Shown here: positions 15,001-21,000 of the stretch, piece after piece | Layout: each line of letters opens with the position of its first letter | How positions within the stretch are numbered: the stretch's first letter is position 1 | NCBI GenBank assembly: GCA_039589315.1 | Contig: JBDHHQ010000053.1 | Location: forward strand, 1-64,000 | DNA length: 64,000 bases | Reading direction: 5' to 3' | Source of the DNA: Gemmatimonadota bacterium | GTDB taxonomy: Bacteria > Gemmatimonadota > Gemmatimonadetes > Longimicrobiales > Gaopeijiaceae | Program-made: the position numbers

Positions 15001-18000
15001 GACTTGCCGACGATGGCCCGCGCGACCTGATCCAATAGCCCGTCGACCCAGGGCCCCGCTTCATGCGTGGCGTCTCTTTGCCACGTCGAGATCACCTGTT
15101 TCAGCGGCGTCCCCTCCCTGATGTCGGGCATTCCGAAGTGGCCGGCCGACTCCTGGTCACACGACTGTACCTCGGCCCTCGACAGGACCAACTCCCTGGC
15201 CCGCTGAAGGTCGGCCGTCCGAAGGACCTCTTCGACCTCGATCGGCAACCGCAGAGTGAGCTGCGAGAATGTTACTGATTCGTCAGTGGGCCCGAGGCCG
15301 AGAGACGCCAGAGTCTTCTGCAGCTCGTCGAAGAACTCTTCAGCGATCTCGTCGATCTCCTCAGAGTCCTCGTTCCACTGGGTCAGCGGGCGAGCTTGCC
15401 TGGGAAAGAACGTCGCATCGGTGAAGAACGTAGTGACGAAGCGGTGAACGTCGGTCCTCTTGCGAAGATCTACCCGGATCTCGTCTTCGAAGGGGTCGGG
15501 TACGTCGTCTGTACACTGAAAGACGAGGATCTCCGTGTCCCGGGTCTCCGGATCCAACGCCACACCGCACTCCCACATACAGAATGACCAATCCCTTTGA
15601 TCGGTCGTGTATAGGAGAATGAGCACCTCGGACCGGAACAGCTTGTCGAGCAGCTCGTCGTCCAACACCCGTCCGATCCTCAACCCCGCCCCGAACTCCG
15701 AGGACTGAAACACCTCGACCTGCCCGAGAGTCCGTTCCTCGATGAAGCTGCGGACCACGTCCGCCAACTTCTGGTCTTGATGTTTATGGCTCAGGAAGAC
15801 CATGGGCCTTGGCATGACTCTATCCTCCGCGTGACTATGACACGCTCAATGCGTCACGTTGGTCTCTTCGTCTATGATCTGAATCCTCGCCGCCATTGCC
15901 TGGCGTCTCCGAACATGTGCTCGAGAGGAGCTTCACTCTCCGCGAGAAACAACAACGAGTCTCCGACCTTGATCTCGTATTCAAGGTCTTTGGGAGGGCT
16001 CGTGAGGTAGACGTCCCGGGCCTCTTCTCCGTTGCCCGTGTGACTGACGCCGTGCGAGGTCACGAATCCCGGCGCGCCGTTTCGGTGAATCGAGACCAAC
16101 AGCACTCCGAAATCTCTTCCGAGCAAGAGGGCCTTGTCGAACGTCTTACCTTCAAACTGCTCTTTCTCGTTTCCACTGACGGGCACCTCGATCAGCTCGC
16201 TGCCGCGCTCGACCGTGAAGACCTCCTCCATGAAGTGGCTGAGGCCGGGGTTGAGCACGCTGTGAGCCAGCAGTTGCTGGTCGAACTCCTGACCGCAGAC
16301 GATCTGATTCACGTGGATCGCCTCGAAGATCCCCCGATTCTCAGGATTGGTCAGCTCGACGACTGTGTGGAGCCGCGTATTCCGCTGCTTGCGCTCACAC
16401 TGCCGGTGTGCCTCCTTCTCCACCACCGAAGTGATGAAGAGCGTCTTGGCGTCCCGATCCTCTCGGTTGACGTTCTCGTCTGCCAATACCACAACCACAT
16501 CGGCACGGTCGAGCCGTGCATCCGACAGGTGAGCCAGCTTGCTCGGCGAACCGTCAACCACCAGGGTCGTCGCCAGCTCTTCGTCTTTGAGCGGCTCGCC
16601 CCCGAAGGGAGCCACCACCACGACGTTTCGACGGCGGCCCTGGAGCTGGCCACTCGAGAGTGAACGCACCAGCCCAGGCCCTCGTTTGTTCCAACCGCAG
16701 ATGATGACGTGGCCGTCCAGGTCACCCGAGGCGTCGTGAAGCTCCATTTTGAGACTCCTTGCGAATCGATCCGAAGCAATGACACCGAGGCCAAATACCA
16801 CTCCGGTTATGCCCAGAAGCCCGATCAGCGCGCTCGAGACCTTACCCCTCACGGACAGGGGGAATCTCTGGTCGTCGAACCCGCTGGCTGCGAAGACGAT
16901 CATCCAGATCAAGTTCTCACCGAACGTCAGGTTCACGAACTCGCTGTTCTCGCCCCGCTCGCGCGCATAGTCGATCTCGGCCATTTGCACGAACACGGAC
17001 CCGAAGAACAGGAGTACGATCACGAATACGGGGATCAATAGCTTGCGGTATCGCCCCGTGACGCCGTCTGGTCCTACCAGCGCCCCCACCCTTTTCGGGG
17101 ACAAGCGAAGCAGCGCACGGCGCGCCCTCTTCGAGAAGCCCAGAACCATGAACACGATCCCCAGGAAGGTGACGAGGACGACGCCCATCTTGAGGCGCCA
17201 ATACTCATACGTGAATGCGCAGGCCTTGCCGGCGTCGTCGCAGTACGTTTGGGCGGCTGCAGGATGAATCGGGATCGCGATACCGTCCGTGAGACCCGTG
17301 GTGCCAAGACTCGGCTGCCCGGGCAACGAGATTTCGTCAAGGTGATGAAGGAGTGCCTCCGTGACGCGATCGACCATCTTCGAAGAGAATAGGTCGGCCC
17401 GTGCCAGGAGGAGCGCTCGAATGCTGACGGTGGCGACGGAGGTCGAGTCATCGTCGTGTGTATGTTCGCCCTCGGATACGACGGCGCCCTCCGCGGCTGC
17501 AGACTCCTGGTGAAGCGCCTCCAGGATTTGCGCCAAGACCCTGCGGTCGCGCGCTTCGGGGGAGTCCGGCAGTGGCCTGTTGTCGACGTAGTAGGGGCGT
17601 TCCTCCGGGTCGACCAGGTGCTGGAGAAGCCCCTCTTCTAGAGAGACGTAATTGGCCTTGGCCTCCTCGACCATCTGGTCGACGGAGTCGGTCCTCATGG
17701 TCGTCAGGAAGACGAGGTCTGTAGTCGCCTCACCATCGTCACGGCCGCGGTCGGGATGGAGAAGGCGTGCCTCTGCCCGCGGGCCGATCCCTTCGTGGAG
17801 TTGGAGCGTGGGCACGCTGTCGAGCTCCGCGTGCGTTATCAGCTCCTCCAAGACGATCGTTGCGTTTGCCCGGGTACCGCTTCCCTCGGGTCCGATAGCG
17901 ACCCTCAGCGGCTCCTTGTCGGTCAGCATGGTCTTGAGCTCATGCGTGGTTCGCAGATGGAGCGACTCCCGCGCGATCAGAAGGACTTCCTCGTAATGGA

Positions 18001-21000
18001 GGCCCATCACGGCCCGGAGCCTGTCACCCCGTAGATTGAACAGGCGGTGAAACCACGTTTCGGCTTTACGCGCATCGAATGCGACATCGGATTGGGCGAT
18101 GGCAAGATCGGCCTCACCATCCGCCAATGCGCGCGCGTTTTCCCACGATCCGCTACTCGTCCGCAGTAAGACGGTGTAGGGCGTCTCGTCCTGGATGACC
18201 TTGGCGATGCGGCAACCGATCTTGTGGTAGTTACCCCCCGACGAACCGGTCCAGAGGATCAGCACTTTCGAGTTATCTGTCTCAGCGGACCGCTGAGGTA
18301 CCGGCCGGCATTGCGGACTGGTGGTGAATTCCGCGTAGGCATAGAACTCGCCCGCAGTTGAATCGCTGAACTGCAGCTTGGGGTTGGATCTCACGGCGAG
18401 GAAGACCATGACGAGGGCGAACGCCACCCCAGCCAGGCTCCAGATCTGAGCGCGAGAGGGGCGATACCGCTCCAGGAGGCGATGGTGCTTCTCGGGAAGC
18501 CGAGCGGGATACATGGGAGACCTCACAGAGGGCCTGGTGTGGGACTCGACACCGGCGGCAATGCAGACTTATTGGATGCGGTCGCCTAGGAACCGCTTCG
18601 AAGACGAGGAGCTAGCGCGGGCGCTCCGGACTTGGTTGGCTCTGATGCACACCCGAGGATCGGGCTGGTCGCGTTGGGGCGGGGGGGCGGCCCTGTTTCG
18701 CGACTCTCGGTCGTTCACGATAGTTGACACGAACCACTGTGGTATGCAAGGAAAACCTCACTAGCGCCGAATCGCGGAGTCACCGATCGAGGACTTGAAG
18801 GGCCGCTTCGATGCGGGGCGACTCGGAACGAGCGAACGTTGTGGCGGCGCAGTGAACCAACCCCGGGGCACATGACCTTCGCGGAAGCGATTCTCTTGTT
18901 CCTATCCCGGTCCCCACGAAGATTGCAGGGTCGCTGCCCAGCCCCCGGTCAGCCAACCCCGCCTCCCATGAGCAACGGACAGGACCGCGCCCTCGAACGA
19001 CTCTCCGCGGCATTCGCGGAACGACGCCTGACCCTCTACCTGGGCGCCGGCGTCTCCGTGGGGAACGGGCTCCCGACGTGGGAGCGGCTAGTCCTGGCCA
19101 TGTACTTCTCGGTCATGAGTCAGCAGCGTTTGGGGTCCTGGCGCCCGTTCGCCAACTACCTCTACGCCATCGCCGAGTGGCAGCTGGGTCAGACCAGCGA
19201 GCCGCTGGAGATTACCGCGCGCAAGCTCCGTAATCTCTACGGGTCCGATGGGGACGGGCGAAACGACCGAGAGGCGTTCCTCCGGGACCTCTGGGAGACC
19301 CTGTGGGCCGGATTCGTCGACGTAGAGGGCCGCCCCTCGGACGAGGTGCATCCCCAGGCCATTCGTGAAGGCAACCCGACGCTCGACGCCGTGGCCAGAC
19401 TCATCGAGGCCGGATCAGCCAGCAGGGGTGTACGGGGTGTCATCACGTACAACTACGACAACCTGGTGGAGCTCGTCCTGGAGGGGGTGCGCCATCAGTC
19501 CATCTACCAGGTCGGTCCGCTGGAGGACGACGCCTTCCCCATCGCCCACGTCCACGGCTTCGTTCCCCTGAGCGGCGAGGGCTCGCTGCCGGACGACATC
19601 GTCTTCACCGAGGACCAATACCACATGGCCGCCCGGGACCCCTATTCGTGGGCCAACCTGGTCCAGATCCAGGCCATGTCGAGCACGGTGGGGCTGATGG
19701 TGGGCCTGTCGCTGTCGGATCGAAACATCCGGCGGCTGCTCGACGCCATCGCCCAGGCCCCCCTGGACTCGGAGAGCTTCATCCTGCTACAGCGTCCCCC
19801 GCGAGATCCGCCGGAACTGGAGGAGCTCTCCGGCATTCATGAGAAGGCCGTCGCCTACCTGGACCGATTCCGTCGCAGCGGCATCAAGGGGGGTGACGAA
19901 GATCGCATCGAGACCACAGGGACACACGTCGGCGTGAAGTCCGCCCAGCCCACCCCCATGTCCAGCTCGGGCGTGAAGGGGCCCATGTACGCGATGCAGA
20001 TCGCGGGGATCCTGGAAGAGATCCGGAAGGTGGACGAGGATCAGCAGACCAAGGTCCTGGGCCAGTTGGGCGTGCACCCCATCTGGTACGACAGCCACGA
20101 CGAGATCCCCGAGATCCTGAGCCGGATCCCCGGCGGGAGTTGAGCGAGAGAGACGCCCGGCAGGCGGCGCCCCATGGGCTCCATCCCCTCGCGGTCGCTG
20201 CCCGATTGGCTCCAGCCCTCGTCGTAGCCACCTCTGGGCAATCAGTCCTCGGCACGCTCCGGTAGCCGGCCCTCGATCCGGTGGATCGCGTCGCGGATCT
20301 CCGTGAGGAGCTCGACCTCGTCACTCGGCCCGACCGCGGGCAGGGCGGCCGGCGGGGCCTCACCTCCCGCCAGAGCCGCCACCACCTTATCGCGCTGATT
20401 CAGCACCGCTTCGCGGAACGCCTCGGTGTCCACGACTCCGATGAGCTTGATCAGCGCACCCTGCGACGACTGCCCCGCCGTCTCCACCGACAGGGCCCGT
20501 AGATCGTAGTGACGCATGACCGGGCCGTGCACGAGACCGACGTCCGTGATCTTGTCCAGCGGAACTGTCTTCTCGACTCGGACGAACATGCCCTTCGAGA
20601 CCTCGAGGGTGCCCGTCGTCAGCACGCAACGCATGTGCTTCAGGTAGCGGTCCGTCAGGGCGTATCCAAACAGGAACCAGAACGGCAACAGCGGGATGCC
20701 CACGACGGTCGCGAGCAGGATGAGCGCTCCGCTCAGGAGCCAATAGGTGCGGACTCGGGGGTTGAACTCCGCTTCCCAGAGGATGGTCTTGTCACGAGGG
20801 CCCGCCGTCTCTTCGCCTGTCACCGGATCGCCTGCCTTTCGCCGTTGATTGGGGCGGCGAATGTAGGGGCGAACCCCGCTGACCCCGCAACTCCGTACCC
20901 GCCTACCCGCTCGCTCCCTTGACCGAACGCCCGGCGTCTGGTTCAGCAGTCGACCGAGGATCAGTGCGTCGCGGCGAAGCATGGACCGTCTCGCGGTCTG

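Follow-up and report, generated by a model that had tools for sequence, protein, structure and literature searches.

A bacterial fusion of a TAXI solute-binding domain, a pore module and an RCK domain is probably a ligand-gated ion channel on a different plan from known glutamate receptors

The pore channels known to be gated by a solute-binding domain use the split-domain, inverted-pore plan of the glutamate receptors. A gene in a Gemmatimonadota bacterium (contig JBDHHQ010000053.1, of which positions 1 to 64,000, a stretch of 64,000 nucleotides, are referred to here as the window) raises the question of whether a second plan exists. The 880-residue product joins a TAXI domain, a pore module and an RCK domain in one chain. 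It probably works as a ligand-gated ion channel on a plan other than that of the known glutamate receptors; that it conducts ions is a prediction. The specific reading favoured here is a cation channel that is gated by a glutamate- or glutamine-type ligand and is not selective for K+; this is assigned a probability of roughly 0.55.

The open reading frame described in an earlier note was found again, with an ATG start preceded by a ribosome-binding site (Table 1). The TAXI domain, membrane helix and helix-pore-helix unit reported for it were also recovered: Pfam NMT1_3 matches residues 89–232 (E 2e-21), TIGR02122 scores 95.5 bits against a cut-off of 84.35, and hydropathy and structural modelling agree, with four hydrophobic helices at 23–41, 443–461, 492–510 and 562–580. 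TrkA_N matches residues 603–739. A fresh model from 91 alignment rows (pLDDT 82.9) places the helix 490–520, the pore helix 531–544 and the helix 555–592 within the same limits as before, and Foldseek returns the same TAXI structures (1us4, 8u79 and 8s4j; E about 1e-16), then MthK (1.6e-14) and Slo1.

Table 1. Features of the channel gene and its surroundings, in window positions
Feature	Position	Strand	Remarks
TAXI-TM-pore-RCK gene, 880 aa	15872..18514	-	single copy in the Gemmatimonadota bacterium genome
N-terminal hydrophobic helix, residues 23–41	18392..18448	-	hydropathy 2.2
TAXI solute-binding domain, residues 81–430	17225..18274	-	Pfam, TIGR02122, structure alignment
Extra membrane helix 443–461 and basic cytoplasmic linker helices 462–489, joining TAXI to pore	17048..17188	-	hydropathy and model
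Outer pore helix 490–520 with E513	16955..17047	-	model; residue 513 acidic in 134/134
Pore helix and filter loop 531–552, W537...S544-G545-F-D-D...P552	16859..16924	-	no TVGYG
Inner pore helix 555–592 with hinge-position G568	16739..16852	-	G568 kept in 109/134
Putative internal start: AGGAG 16755–16759, 7-nt spacer, ATG of M590 16745–16747	16745..16760	-	anti-SD pairing
Single RCK domain 600–869, no NAD-type GxGxxG	15908..16717	-	conserved acids D688, E720, E764, E773
TIR_2 gene, 56 bp downstream of the channel gene	14802..15815	-	same strand; within the same indel
Block of about 4.1 kb with TIR and channel genes	14736..18884		replaced by about 195 bp in the same-genus genome G001

With search profiles that were iterated on the same matches they then scored, the three parts were found in the same order in 134 of the best 150 cluster representatives, which bears out the proposal that this order defines a protein family; counts out of 134 refer to these three-domain representatives. 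A repeat search gave the identical number of 58 clusters at E≤1e-30, of which 53 carry all three parts, and the previous figure of 33 of 33 hits with TAXI and RCK domains was a property of the sample. The other five are four short pieces (191–479 aa) and a 768-aa TAXI-less channel with two RCKs. The fusion is maintained at 20–40% overall identity and its distribution is patchy. Eight of 80 genome loci contain it, most of the others, as well as 74 of 80 metagenome loci, having been dropped as stand-alone TAXI or other RCK genes. The plasmid database yielded no match for the channel and the phage database one TAXI-only piece. At two loci (L161 and L174) an RCK gene beside a separate TAXI gene was considered as a split form and set aside because, read from sequence, the next genes in order are a small one and one for a membrane protein, a layout like that of a TAXI-TRAP operon. 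A literature search that covered main texts and took in few subscription papers found no published TAXI-channel fusion.

What might the outer domain bind? It aligns with VcGluP (8s4j; VIA-align Z 30.5, rmsd 3.0, 287 residues) and resembles TAXI binding proteins such as VcGluP, TtGluBP (1us4) and BP0403 in both fold and amino-acid-binding residues. Y96, S123, Q141, E175 and G213 correspond to VcGluP Y45, S75, Q93, E125 and G156, glutamate-contact residues listed in PMC11574862, and are kept in 126, 114, 127, 127 and 119 of the 134 relatives, respectively. All five occur together in 102 of 127 gap-free family rows; for stand-alone TAXIs the figure is 5 of 12. The same paper describes Q93 as the strongest binding determinant, yet present in only 54% of TAXIs. 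On the other side, the Y-S-Q-E-G set is also found in 4ddd and 9oz4, and the counterpart of VcGluP Y200 is not conserved. The kept residues lend support to the earlier suggestion of glutamate: the predicted ligand is an alpha-amino acid, most likely glutamate or glutamine.

TAXI proteins of TRAP and GltS transporters differ from this family, in which the TAXI domain is fused to a channel and no transporter membrane part lies among the scanned neighbours. Published TAXI-GltS fusions (10.1101/2024.11.27.625746 and PMC12344293) suggest that the domain could pass glutamate to the pore, as TAXI proteins pass it to the membrane subunits of GltS and TRAP transporters. With such binding-protein-assisted uptake the lack of a DctM match would agree, in the subset of ORFs scanned in the window and around 21 family loci, seven of which have less than 1 kb on one side. 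Against this, the membrane part folds as a K-channel pore, has an acidic mouth and is no elevator transporter. No pore-loop channel is known to pass amino acids, and uptake of this kind appears highly improbable.

In GluR0 and the ionotropic glutamate receptors an inverted pore lies between the two halves, S1 and S2, of the binding domain (PMC2950845). The family shares with them a clamshell fused to a pore-loop channel, but here the whole TAXI fold precedes all pore helices and is followed by an extra helix, a pore in K-channel orientation and an RCK domain inside. Residues 23–41 are predicted to form a signal peptide, putatively cleaved, or an anchor that places the TAXI domain outside, and a hydrophobic stretch of this sort is present in 117 of the 134 relatives. 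The extra membrane helix exceeds the threshold in 125, and net positive charge precedes the next helix in 124. Family, domain order and topology (TAXI outside, RCK inside) hold. Whether ligand binding commands the pore is a separate matter. Relatives without a TAXI domain that have the same filter and RCK (L210, P0048 and the second gene at L098) indicate that the pore can persist independently of it, and a single helix plus linker joins the domain to the pore; both facts would suit a cation channel gated mainly by its RCK ring, in which TAXI binds a ligand but merely tunes gating or leaves it unaffected. Conservation of the fusion and its binding residues across such divergent sequences speaks against that arrangement, as does a Cys pair (425 and 432) at the TAXI-helix junction, invariant among the 12 closest sequences and indicative of a stiff connection; control by the ring with so little say for TAXI is judged quite unlikely.

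The pore module displays the helix-pore helix-helix arrangement of RCK-gated K+ channels. It aligns with KcsA over 102 of 103 residues (rmsd 2.5; Z 9.0, modest for a helical unit), 11 of the top 12 rows in a structure search are K-channel pores, and the TM-score is about 0.79 when target-normalised. A prediction of four copies of residues 428–600 scored 0.16 against a mark of 0.42, with controls not folded, and speaks neither for nor against a tetramer. The K+ filter signature TxG[YF]G occurs in none of the 134, as the earlier note had remarked of TVGYG for this protein, and the filter is more variable than was stated there: the proposed motif W-x-x-[VL]-F-x-x-[ST]-G-[FY] fits just 23 of 134, and 21 of the 53 within the top 58. 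Only [ST]G...P is retained across the family, P552 being kept in 133.

This drift of the outer filter counts against a conducting pore. Loop lengths fall into two classes (41 and 80 members) plus 13 longer ones, the filter Gly is absent in 11 of 134, and 28 have no acidic residue within four positions past it, against 106 with at least one D/E. The strongly drifted loops of L021 and L205 would fit a non-conducting pore in some members. Carried further, these losses, together with a ligand site and ring better conserved than the outer filter, could mean that amino-acid binding is signalled across the membrane to the RCK ring, or to a partner of the ring, by a channel scaffold that passes no ions. 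Such a sensor is nevertheless unlikely: the inner helix is glycine-rich and keeps its hinge position, 31 of 41 short-loop members have E at the second position past the Gly, and neither an output domain nor a conserved neighbour, signalling or otherwise, appeared among the neighbouring ORFs that were scanned at 21 loci.

CASTOR/POLLUX/DMI1, the plant nuclear Ca2+-regulated Ca2+ channels, match the cytoplasmic part best in both sequence and fold. Residues 600–869 align with CASTOR RCK1 (320–560; Z 17.4, rmsd 2.9, 231 residues) and with the MthK RCK (115–336; Z 17.0, rmsd 3.5, 216 residues). As this region corresponds to one RCK, and a profile search likewise finds one, the tandem RCK previously ascribed to the protein is ruled out; two RCKs do occur in 62 of the 134 relatives. 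D688 and E720 are presumably the counterparts of MthK D184 and E210. A match of D688 with CASTOR D442 was dropped: the alignment and the paper's numbering place D442 at N723 and D444 at E725, positions that are not conserved. E773 aligns, with a one-residue shift, near CASTOR E493, and 62 of 72 single-RCK members have E or D at the E773 position. According to PMC6697748, E493 is a Ca2+ ligand required for activity, the CASTOR filter is ADSGNHA, and this RCK channel conducts without TVGYG. In both proteins SG ends the pore helix; the 880-aa protein reads AASGFDD, with no Asp before SG. CASTOR has no solute-binding domain and, unlike it, the bacterial protein has a single RCK.

How, then, could a gating ring of eight RCKs arise? 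Of the gene's 37 scored internal ATG/GTG codons, M590 has the strongest anti-SD pairing (−8.0 kcal/mol), through the AGGAG ahead of it, and a start there is expected to give a soluble RCK of 291 aa (16747 to 15872). Of the single-RCK members, 63 of 70 have a Met within the 14 residues ahead of the RCK; of the double-RCK members, 15 of 62 do, with 21% expected. Single-RCK clades are consistent in this (6/8, 16/16, 17/18, 9/9 and 10/12), compared with, for example, 4/17, 2/13 and 2/14 in large double-RCK groups. Pairing of −4 kcal/mol or better was seen at 17 of 18 single-RCK loci versus 51 of 369 other internal ATG/GTG codons, a comparison that takes the best of one to three candidate codons per gene and includes some loci that are close kin. 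The linker Met in all four double-RCK members nested among single-RCK clades counts against the ring interpretation. Kch uses an internal Met for a soluble RCK (PMC13563188). The Met and ribosome-binding site before the lone RCK suggest that here, too, a second soluble RCK completes an eight-membered ring. The idea of an RCK ring stands, with a predicted internal start codon in place of tandem domains. MthK and E. coli Kch resemble the family in having a pore-loop module with hinge Gly followed by one RCK; they differ in possessing TVGYG and in lacking the N-terminal TAXI domain and extra membrane helix, and about half of the family has two RCKs. BK/Slo1 and GsuK, which are K+-selective, share the pore and RCK ring, and the tandem layout of double-RCK relatives, but have no outside binding domain.

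Taken together, the favoured cation channel would be a tetrameric pore-loop protein with one input outside and one inside. An intact TAXI clamshell would bind the amino acid and, on closing, might act on the pore by way of the C-terminal TAXI helix, then the extra membrane helix and finally the cytoplasmic linker; the ligand would open or close the pore. Four attached and four soluble RCKs would form the ring and pull on the inner helices, with Ca2+ or another cation as the probable trigger, and the altered filter, which combines [ST]G with acidic residues, would pass cations without K+ selectivity. A bolder version, tentative and at somewhat under even odds, is that this is a second, independent invention of an amino-acid-gated ion channel: a coincidence detector for outside glutamate and an inside cation, which may pass Ca2+ or Na+. 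The whole clamshell would drive a normally oriented pore via a helix and linker at the Kv/Slo S4 and S4–S5 positions, and a Ca2+-sensing RCK ring would gate from inside. If the channel reading is right, a widespread family exhibits a second build plan (intact binding protein, ordinary-orientation pore, RCK ring), bacteria can translate amino acids outside the cell directly into membrane potential or Ca2+, and small bacterial models become available for RCK channels that, like CASTOR/DMI1, are not K-selective. Two predictions are cheap to test: Glu/Gln binding via Q141 and Y96, and the soluble product from M590.

The genomic setting invites one further explanation, that the channel is a stress or anti-phage effector whose pore opens on amino-acid leakage or on a signal made by TIR, with depolarisation of the cell as the outcome. 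The channel and TIR genes share one indel, the channel gene borders a SIR2 gene, defence-type or mobile-island genes lie near six of 22 loci (the window, L018, L097, L099, L100 and L205), and the spread is patchy. Yet PADLOC has no match for the channel, SIR2 is present in G001 without it, and TIR and SIR2 were rejected as conserved partners, since those of the window have no homologue in the 21 family loci. Transferred genes gather in such islands anyway, and most family loci sit among housekeeping genes; an effector role is very unlikely. A promoter search at the locus gave no match, and no terminal repeats were found at the ends of the 4.1-kb indel. GC3 in the block is 0.76–0.80, compared with 0.82–0.87 for seven genes elsewhere in the window.

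The channel gene is read without interruption over 880 aa, occurs in one copy in its genome and encodes in a single chain an outside solute-binding domain (TAXI), a pore and an inside regulatory domain (RCK); residue numbers below refer to this protein. NMT1_3 is matched at E 2e-21, TIGR02122 (TAXI) over its cut-off and TrkA_N as well, and hydropathy places helices at 23–41, 443–461, 492–510 and 562–580. The predicted model (pLDDT 82.9, pTM 0.62) and its Foldseek matches agree with those of the earlier note, and when representatives at 50% identity were searched without a profile, the 58 clusters at E<=1e-30 counted there were reproduced; 571 were returned at E<=1e-10. 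Architecture was scored on the best 150 of these 571, with profiles iterated on the same matches that they then scored: the order TAXI, pore, RCK was found in 134 of the 150 and in 53 of the 58 top representatives, and one RCK is present in 72 of the 134, two in 62. Independently, Pfam assigned NMT1_3 and Slo-like_RCK to all nine full-length fusions submitted, a tenth ending at a contig edge. Longer variants exist (L173:4877-8884, P0151, P0098, P0017), for instance with two TAXI domains ahead of the pore and two RCKs (1335 aa), and P0147 carries four TAXI repeats and no pore. Two members are disrupted by a stop or frameshift, through assembly error or decay (L117:5616-8710, at the TAXI start; L206:6190-8341, in the RCK). 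A low-confidence 40-residue insertion in the window's TAXI domain is missing from the seven closest relatives.

Features of the window around the channel gene
Feature	Position	Strand	Remark
TIR_2 gene	14802-15815	(-)	C-terminal half outside any assigned domain; Atlas cluster of 174
Channel gene	15872-18514	(-)	
Insertion in TAXI domain	about 17444-17578		residues 313-357
SIR2_2 gene, stand-alone	18968-20143	(+)	also in G001 (same genus), there without TIR

In the glutamate-binding TAXI protein VcGluP, according to PMC11574862, Y45, S75, Q93, E125 and G156 touch the amino and alpha-carboxyl groups of glutamate, Y45A and Q93A lower affinity 213-fold and 990-fold, and Q93 occurs in 54% of TAXIs. 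Counted along the 9ibo alignment, these contacts correspond to Y96, S123, Q141, E175 and G213, kept respectively in 126, 114, 127, 127 and 119 of the 134 relatives. Of 127 rows free of gaps, 102 have all five; in the control, which is small and biased, 5 of 12 non-redundant stand-alone TAXIs do. Because these residues are kept across the relatives, the predicted ligand site is, on sequence grounds, intact and selected for an alpha-amino acid. The set does not single out one amino acid, since 4ddd and 9oz4 carry it too.

The isolated fold of residues 485–593 matches KcsA at 2.5 A across 102 of 103 residues; its Z of 9.0 is modest, given that the module is helical. K-channel pores fill 11 of the top 12 rows of a structure search with this module, and Foldseek gave E 3e-3 and weaker, with a target-normalised TM of about 0.79. 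Three features together give the orientation, a hydrophobic stretch at the N-terminus (117 of the 134), an extra membrane helix (125) and net positive charge ahead of the outer helix (124): the TAXI domain and, as in K+ channels, the pore loop face outward, the RCK inward. TxG[YF]G occurs in none of the 134 three-part representatives, and the pattern W-x-x-[VL]-F-x-x-[ST]-G-[FY] proposed in the earlier note proved too narrow, fitting just 23. Conservation is seen instead in [ST]G (111), the glycine alone (123), P552 (133) and an acidic residue at 513 (134). Short filter loops characterize 41 members (S-G-[FL]-E, with E in 31); 80 have long loops and 13 longer ones still, and one-RCK and two-RCK members occur in both classes. 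Strict conservation of the filter is confined, at most, to the short-loop members. G568, kept in 109 of the 134, presumably lies at the position of the KcsA G99 hinge. The glycine hinge of the inner pore helix, G99 in KcsA, is described in PMC4565861. The outer filter drifts; this is the weak point of a channel reading and leaves standing a sensor that does not conduct, an unlikely alternative, and a filter of such kind is able to conduct in the plant channel CASTOR (PMC6697748). RCK channels lacking TAXI and bearing another non-K filter (..GEP..) were also found (P0048, P0080, P0109, P0118, P0131, P0133; L148, L175), so that non-GYG RCK channels appear to form a wider bacterial set.

Where tandem RCK domains had been claimed, residues 600–869 form one RCK with its C-terminal lobe, aligning to CASTOR RCK1 and the single RCK of MthK; DMI1/CASTOR are closest in a single-sequence search. 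E773 lies within one residue of the CASTOR E493 Ca2+ site (E/D in 62 of 72 single-RCK members, E in 45 of 62 double-RCK members), and the counterparts of CASTOR D442/D444 are not conserved in the family. One RCK per subunit would provide only four RCKs. Kch obtains four extra ones from an internal Met (PMC13563188; in general terms PMC4565861). A Met within 14 residues ahead of the RCK is found in 63 of 70 single-RCK members (two of the 72 rows being unplaceable) versus 15 of 62 double-RCK members, with 21% expected; kinship among the rows makes the Fisher value too strong. This split repeats across tree clades, and both single-RCK rows that fall among double-RCK clades lack the linker Met. 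Upstream of the linker Met codon, 17 of 18 single-RCK loci pair with the anti-SD at -4 kcal/mol or better, the remaining one being the frameshifted L206, versus 51 of 369 other internal ATG/GTG codons; neither of two double-RCK loci shows such pairing. The window gene has AGGAG 7 nt ahead of M590, where pairing is stronger than at any other of the 37 internal sites scored. At L098:5852-10408 a fusion is followed by a TAXI-less channel gene (VSGFD filter, 452 aa) and a stand-alone soluble-RCK gene (284 aa). The three may make up a heteromeric channel operon, and G347, the genome concerned, holds another full fusion.

A channel gated from both sides, in which an outside amino-acid site and an inside RCK ring would control one pore, is the simplest account of three features: the amino-acid site is intact, the hinge is conserved, and a putative source of further RCKs for the ring is under selection. 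Gating by the RCK only appears quite unlikely, and assisted uptake is a highly improbable role. No report of a TAXI–channel fusion was found in the literature searched, which left out most subscription titles. The word 'channel' is absent from the main texts of PMC11574862 and the TAXI–GltS paper, as are TAXI, RCK and TrkA from the searched text of the prokaryotic iGluR survey PMC2950845. Every module is already known and the combination seems undescribed; judged by the defining features of the K+ channel, CASTOR and iGluR families, the fusion is a candidate RCK pore-loop channel outside all three.

Neither 60 relatives nor a set of 300 genomes from the phylum (the two overlap) yielded the fusion. 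By their record titles, carriers belong to Cloacimonadota, Calditrichaeota, Chlorobium/Chlorobiales, Flavobacteriales, Thiotrichaceae and Pseudomonadales, and Atlas clusters with both domains have 140 and 51 members. Carrier-centred searches matched at least 5 of 401, at least 5 of 151 (two TAXI-less) and at least 2 of 400 genomes (one TAXI alone), floors obtained by scoring 2–7 candidates per genome.

Among 84 + 50 of the ORFs listed around family loci there was no family-wide shared neighbour and no match to DctM. In G001 about 195 bp separate the Mre11-like gene from the SIR2 gene, which makes the TIR and channel genes a 4.1-kb indel; its GC3 is lower. TIR_2 and SIR2_2 give weak, ThsB/ThsA-like PADLOC matches, and none of 21 family loci contains a homologue of the window TIR. 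A defence role is rated as very unlikely. Wadjet-type genes (DUF3375, DUF4194, SbcC-like, DUF3322) lie at L205:8945-15000, directly 3' of a member whose filter has drifted strongly. ArsP_1-type permease half-genes stand just downstream of short-loop fusions in three related genomes (L207, L208, L209), and LPP20 lipoprotein and MltC-like lytic transglycosylase genes adjoin the fusion in two unrelated ones (L096:5194-7736, L117:3787-5592). Between its cyclophilin and Mre11-like genes, G001 carries a 501-aa gene (L189:907-2412), photolyase-like by eye and absent from the window.
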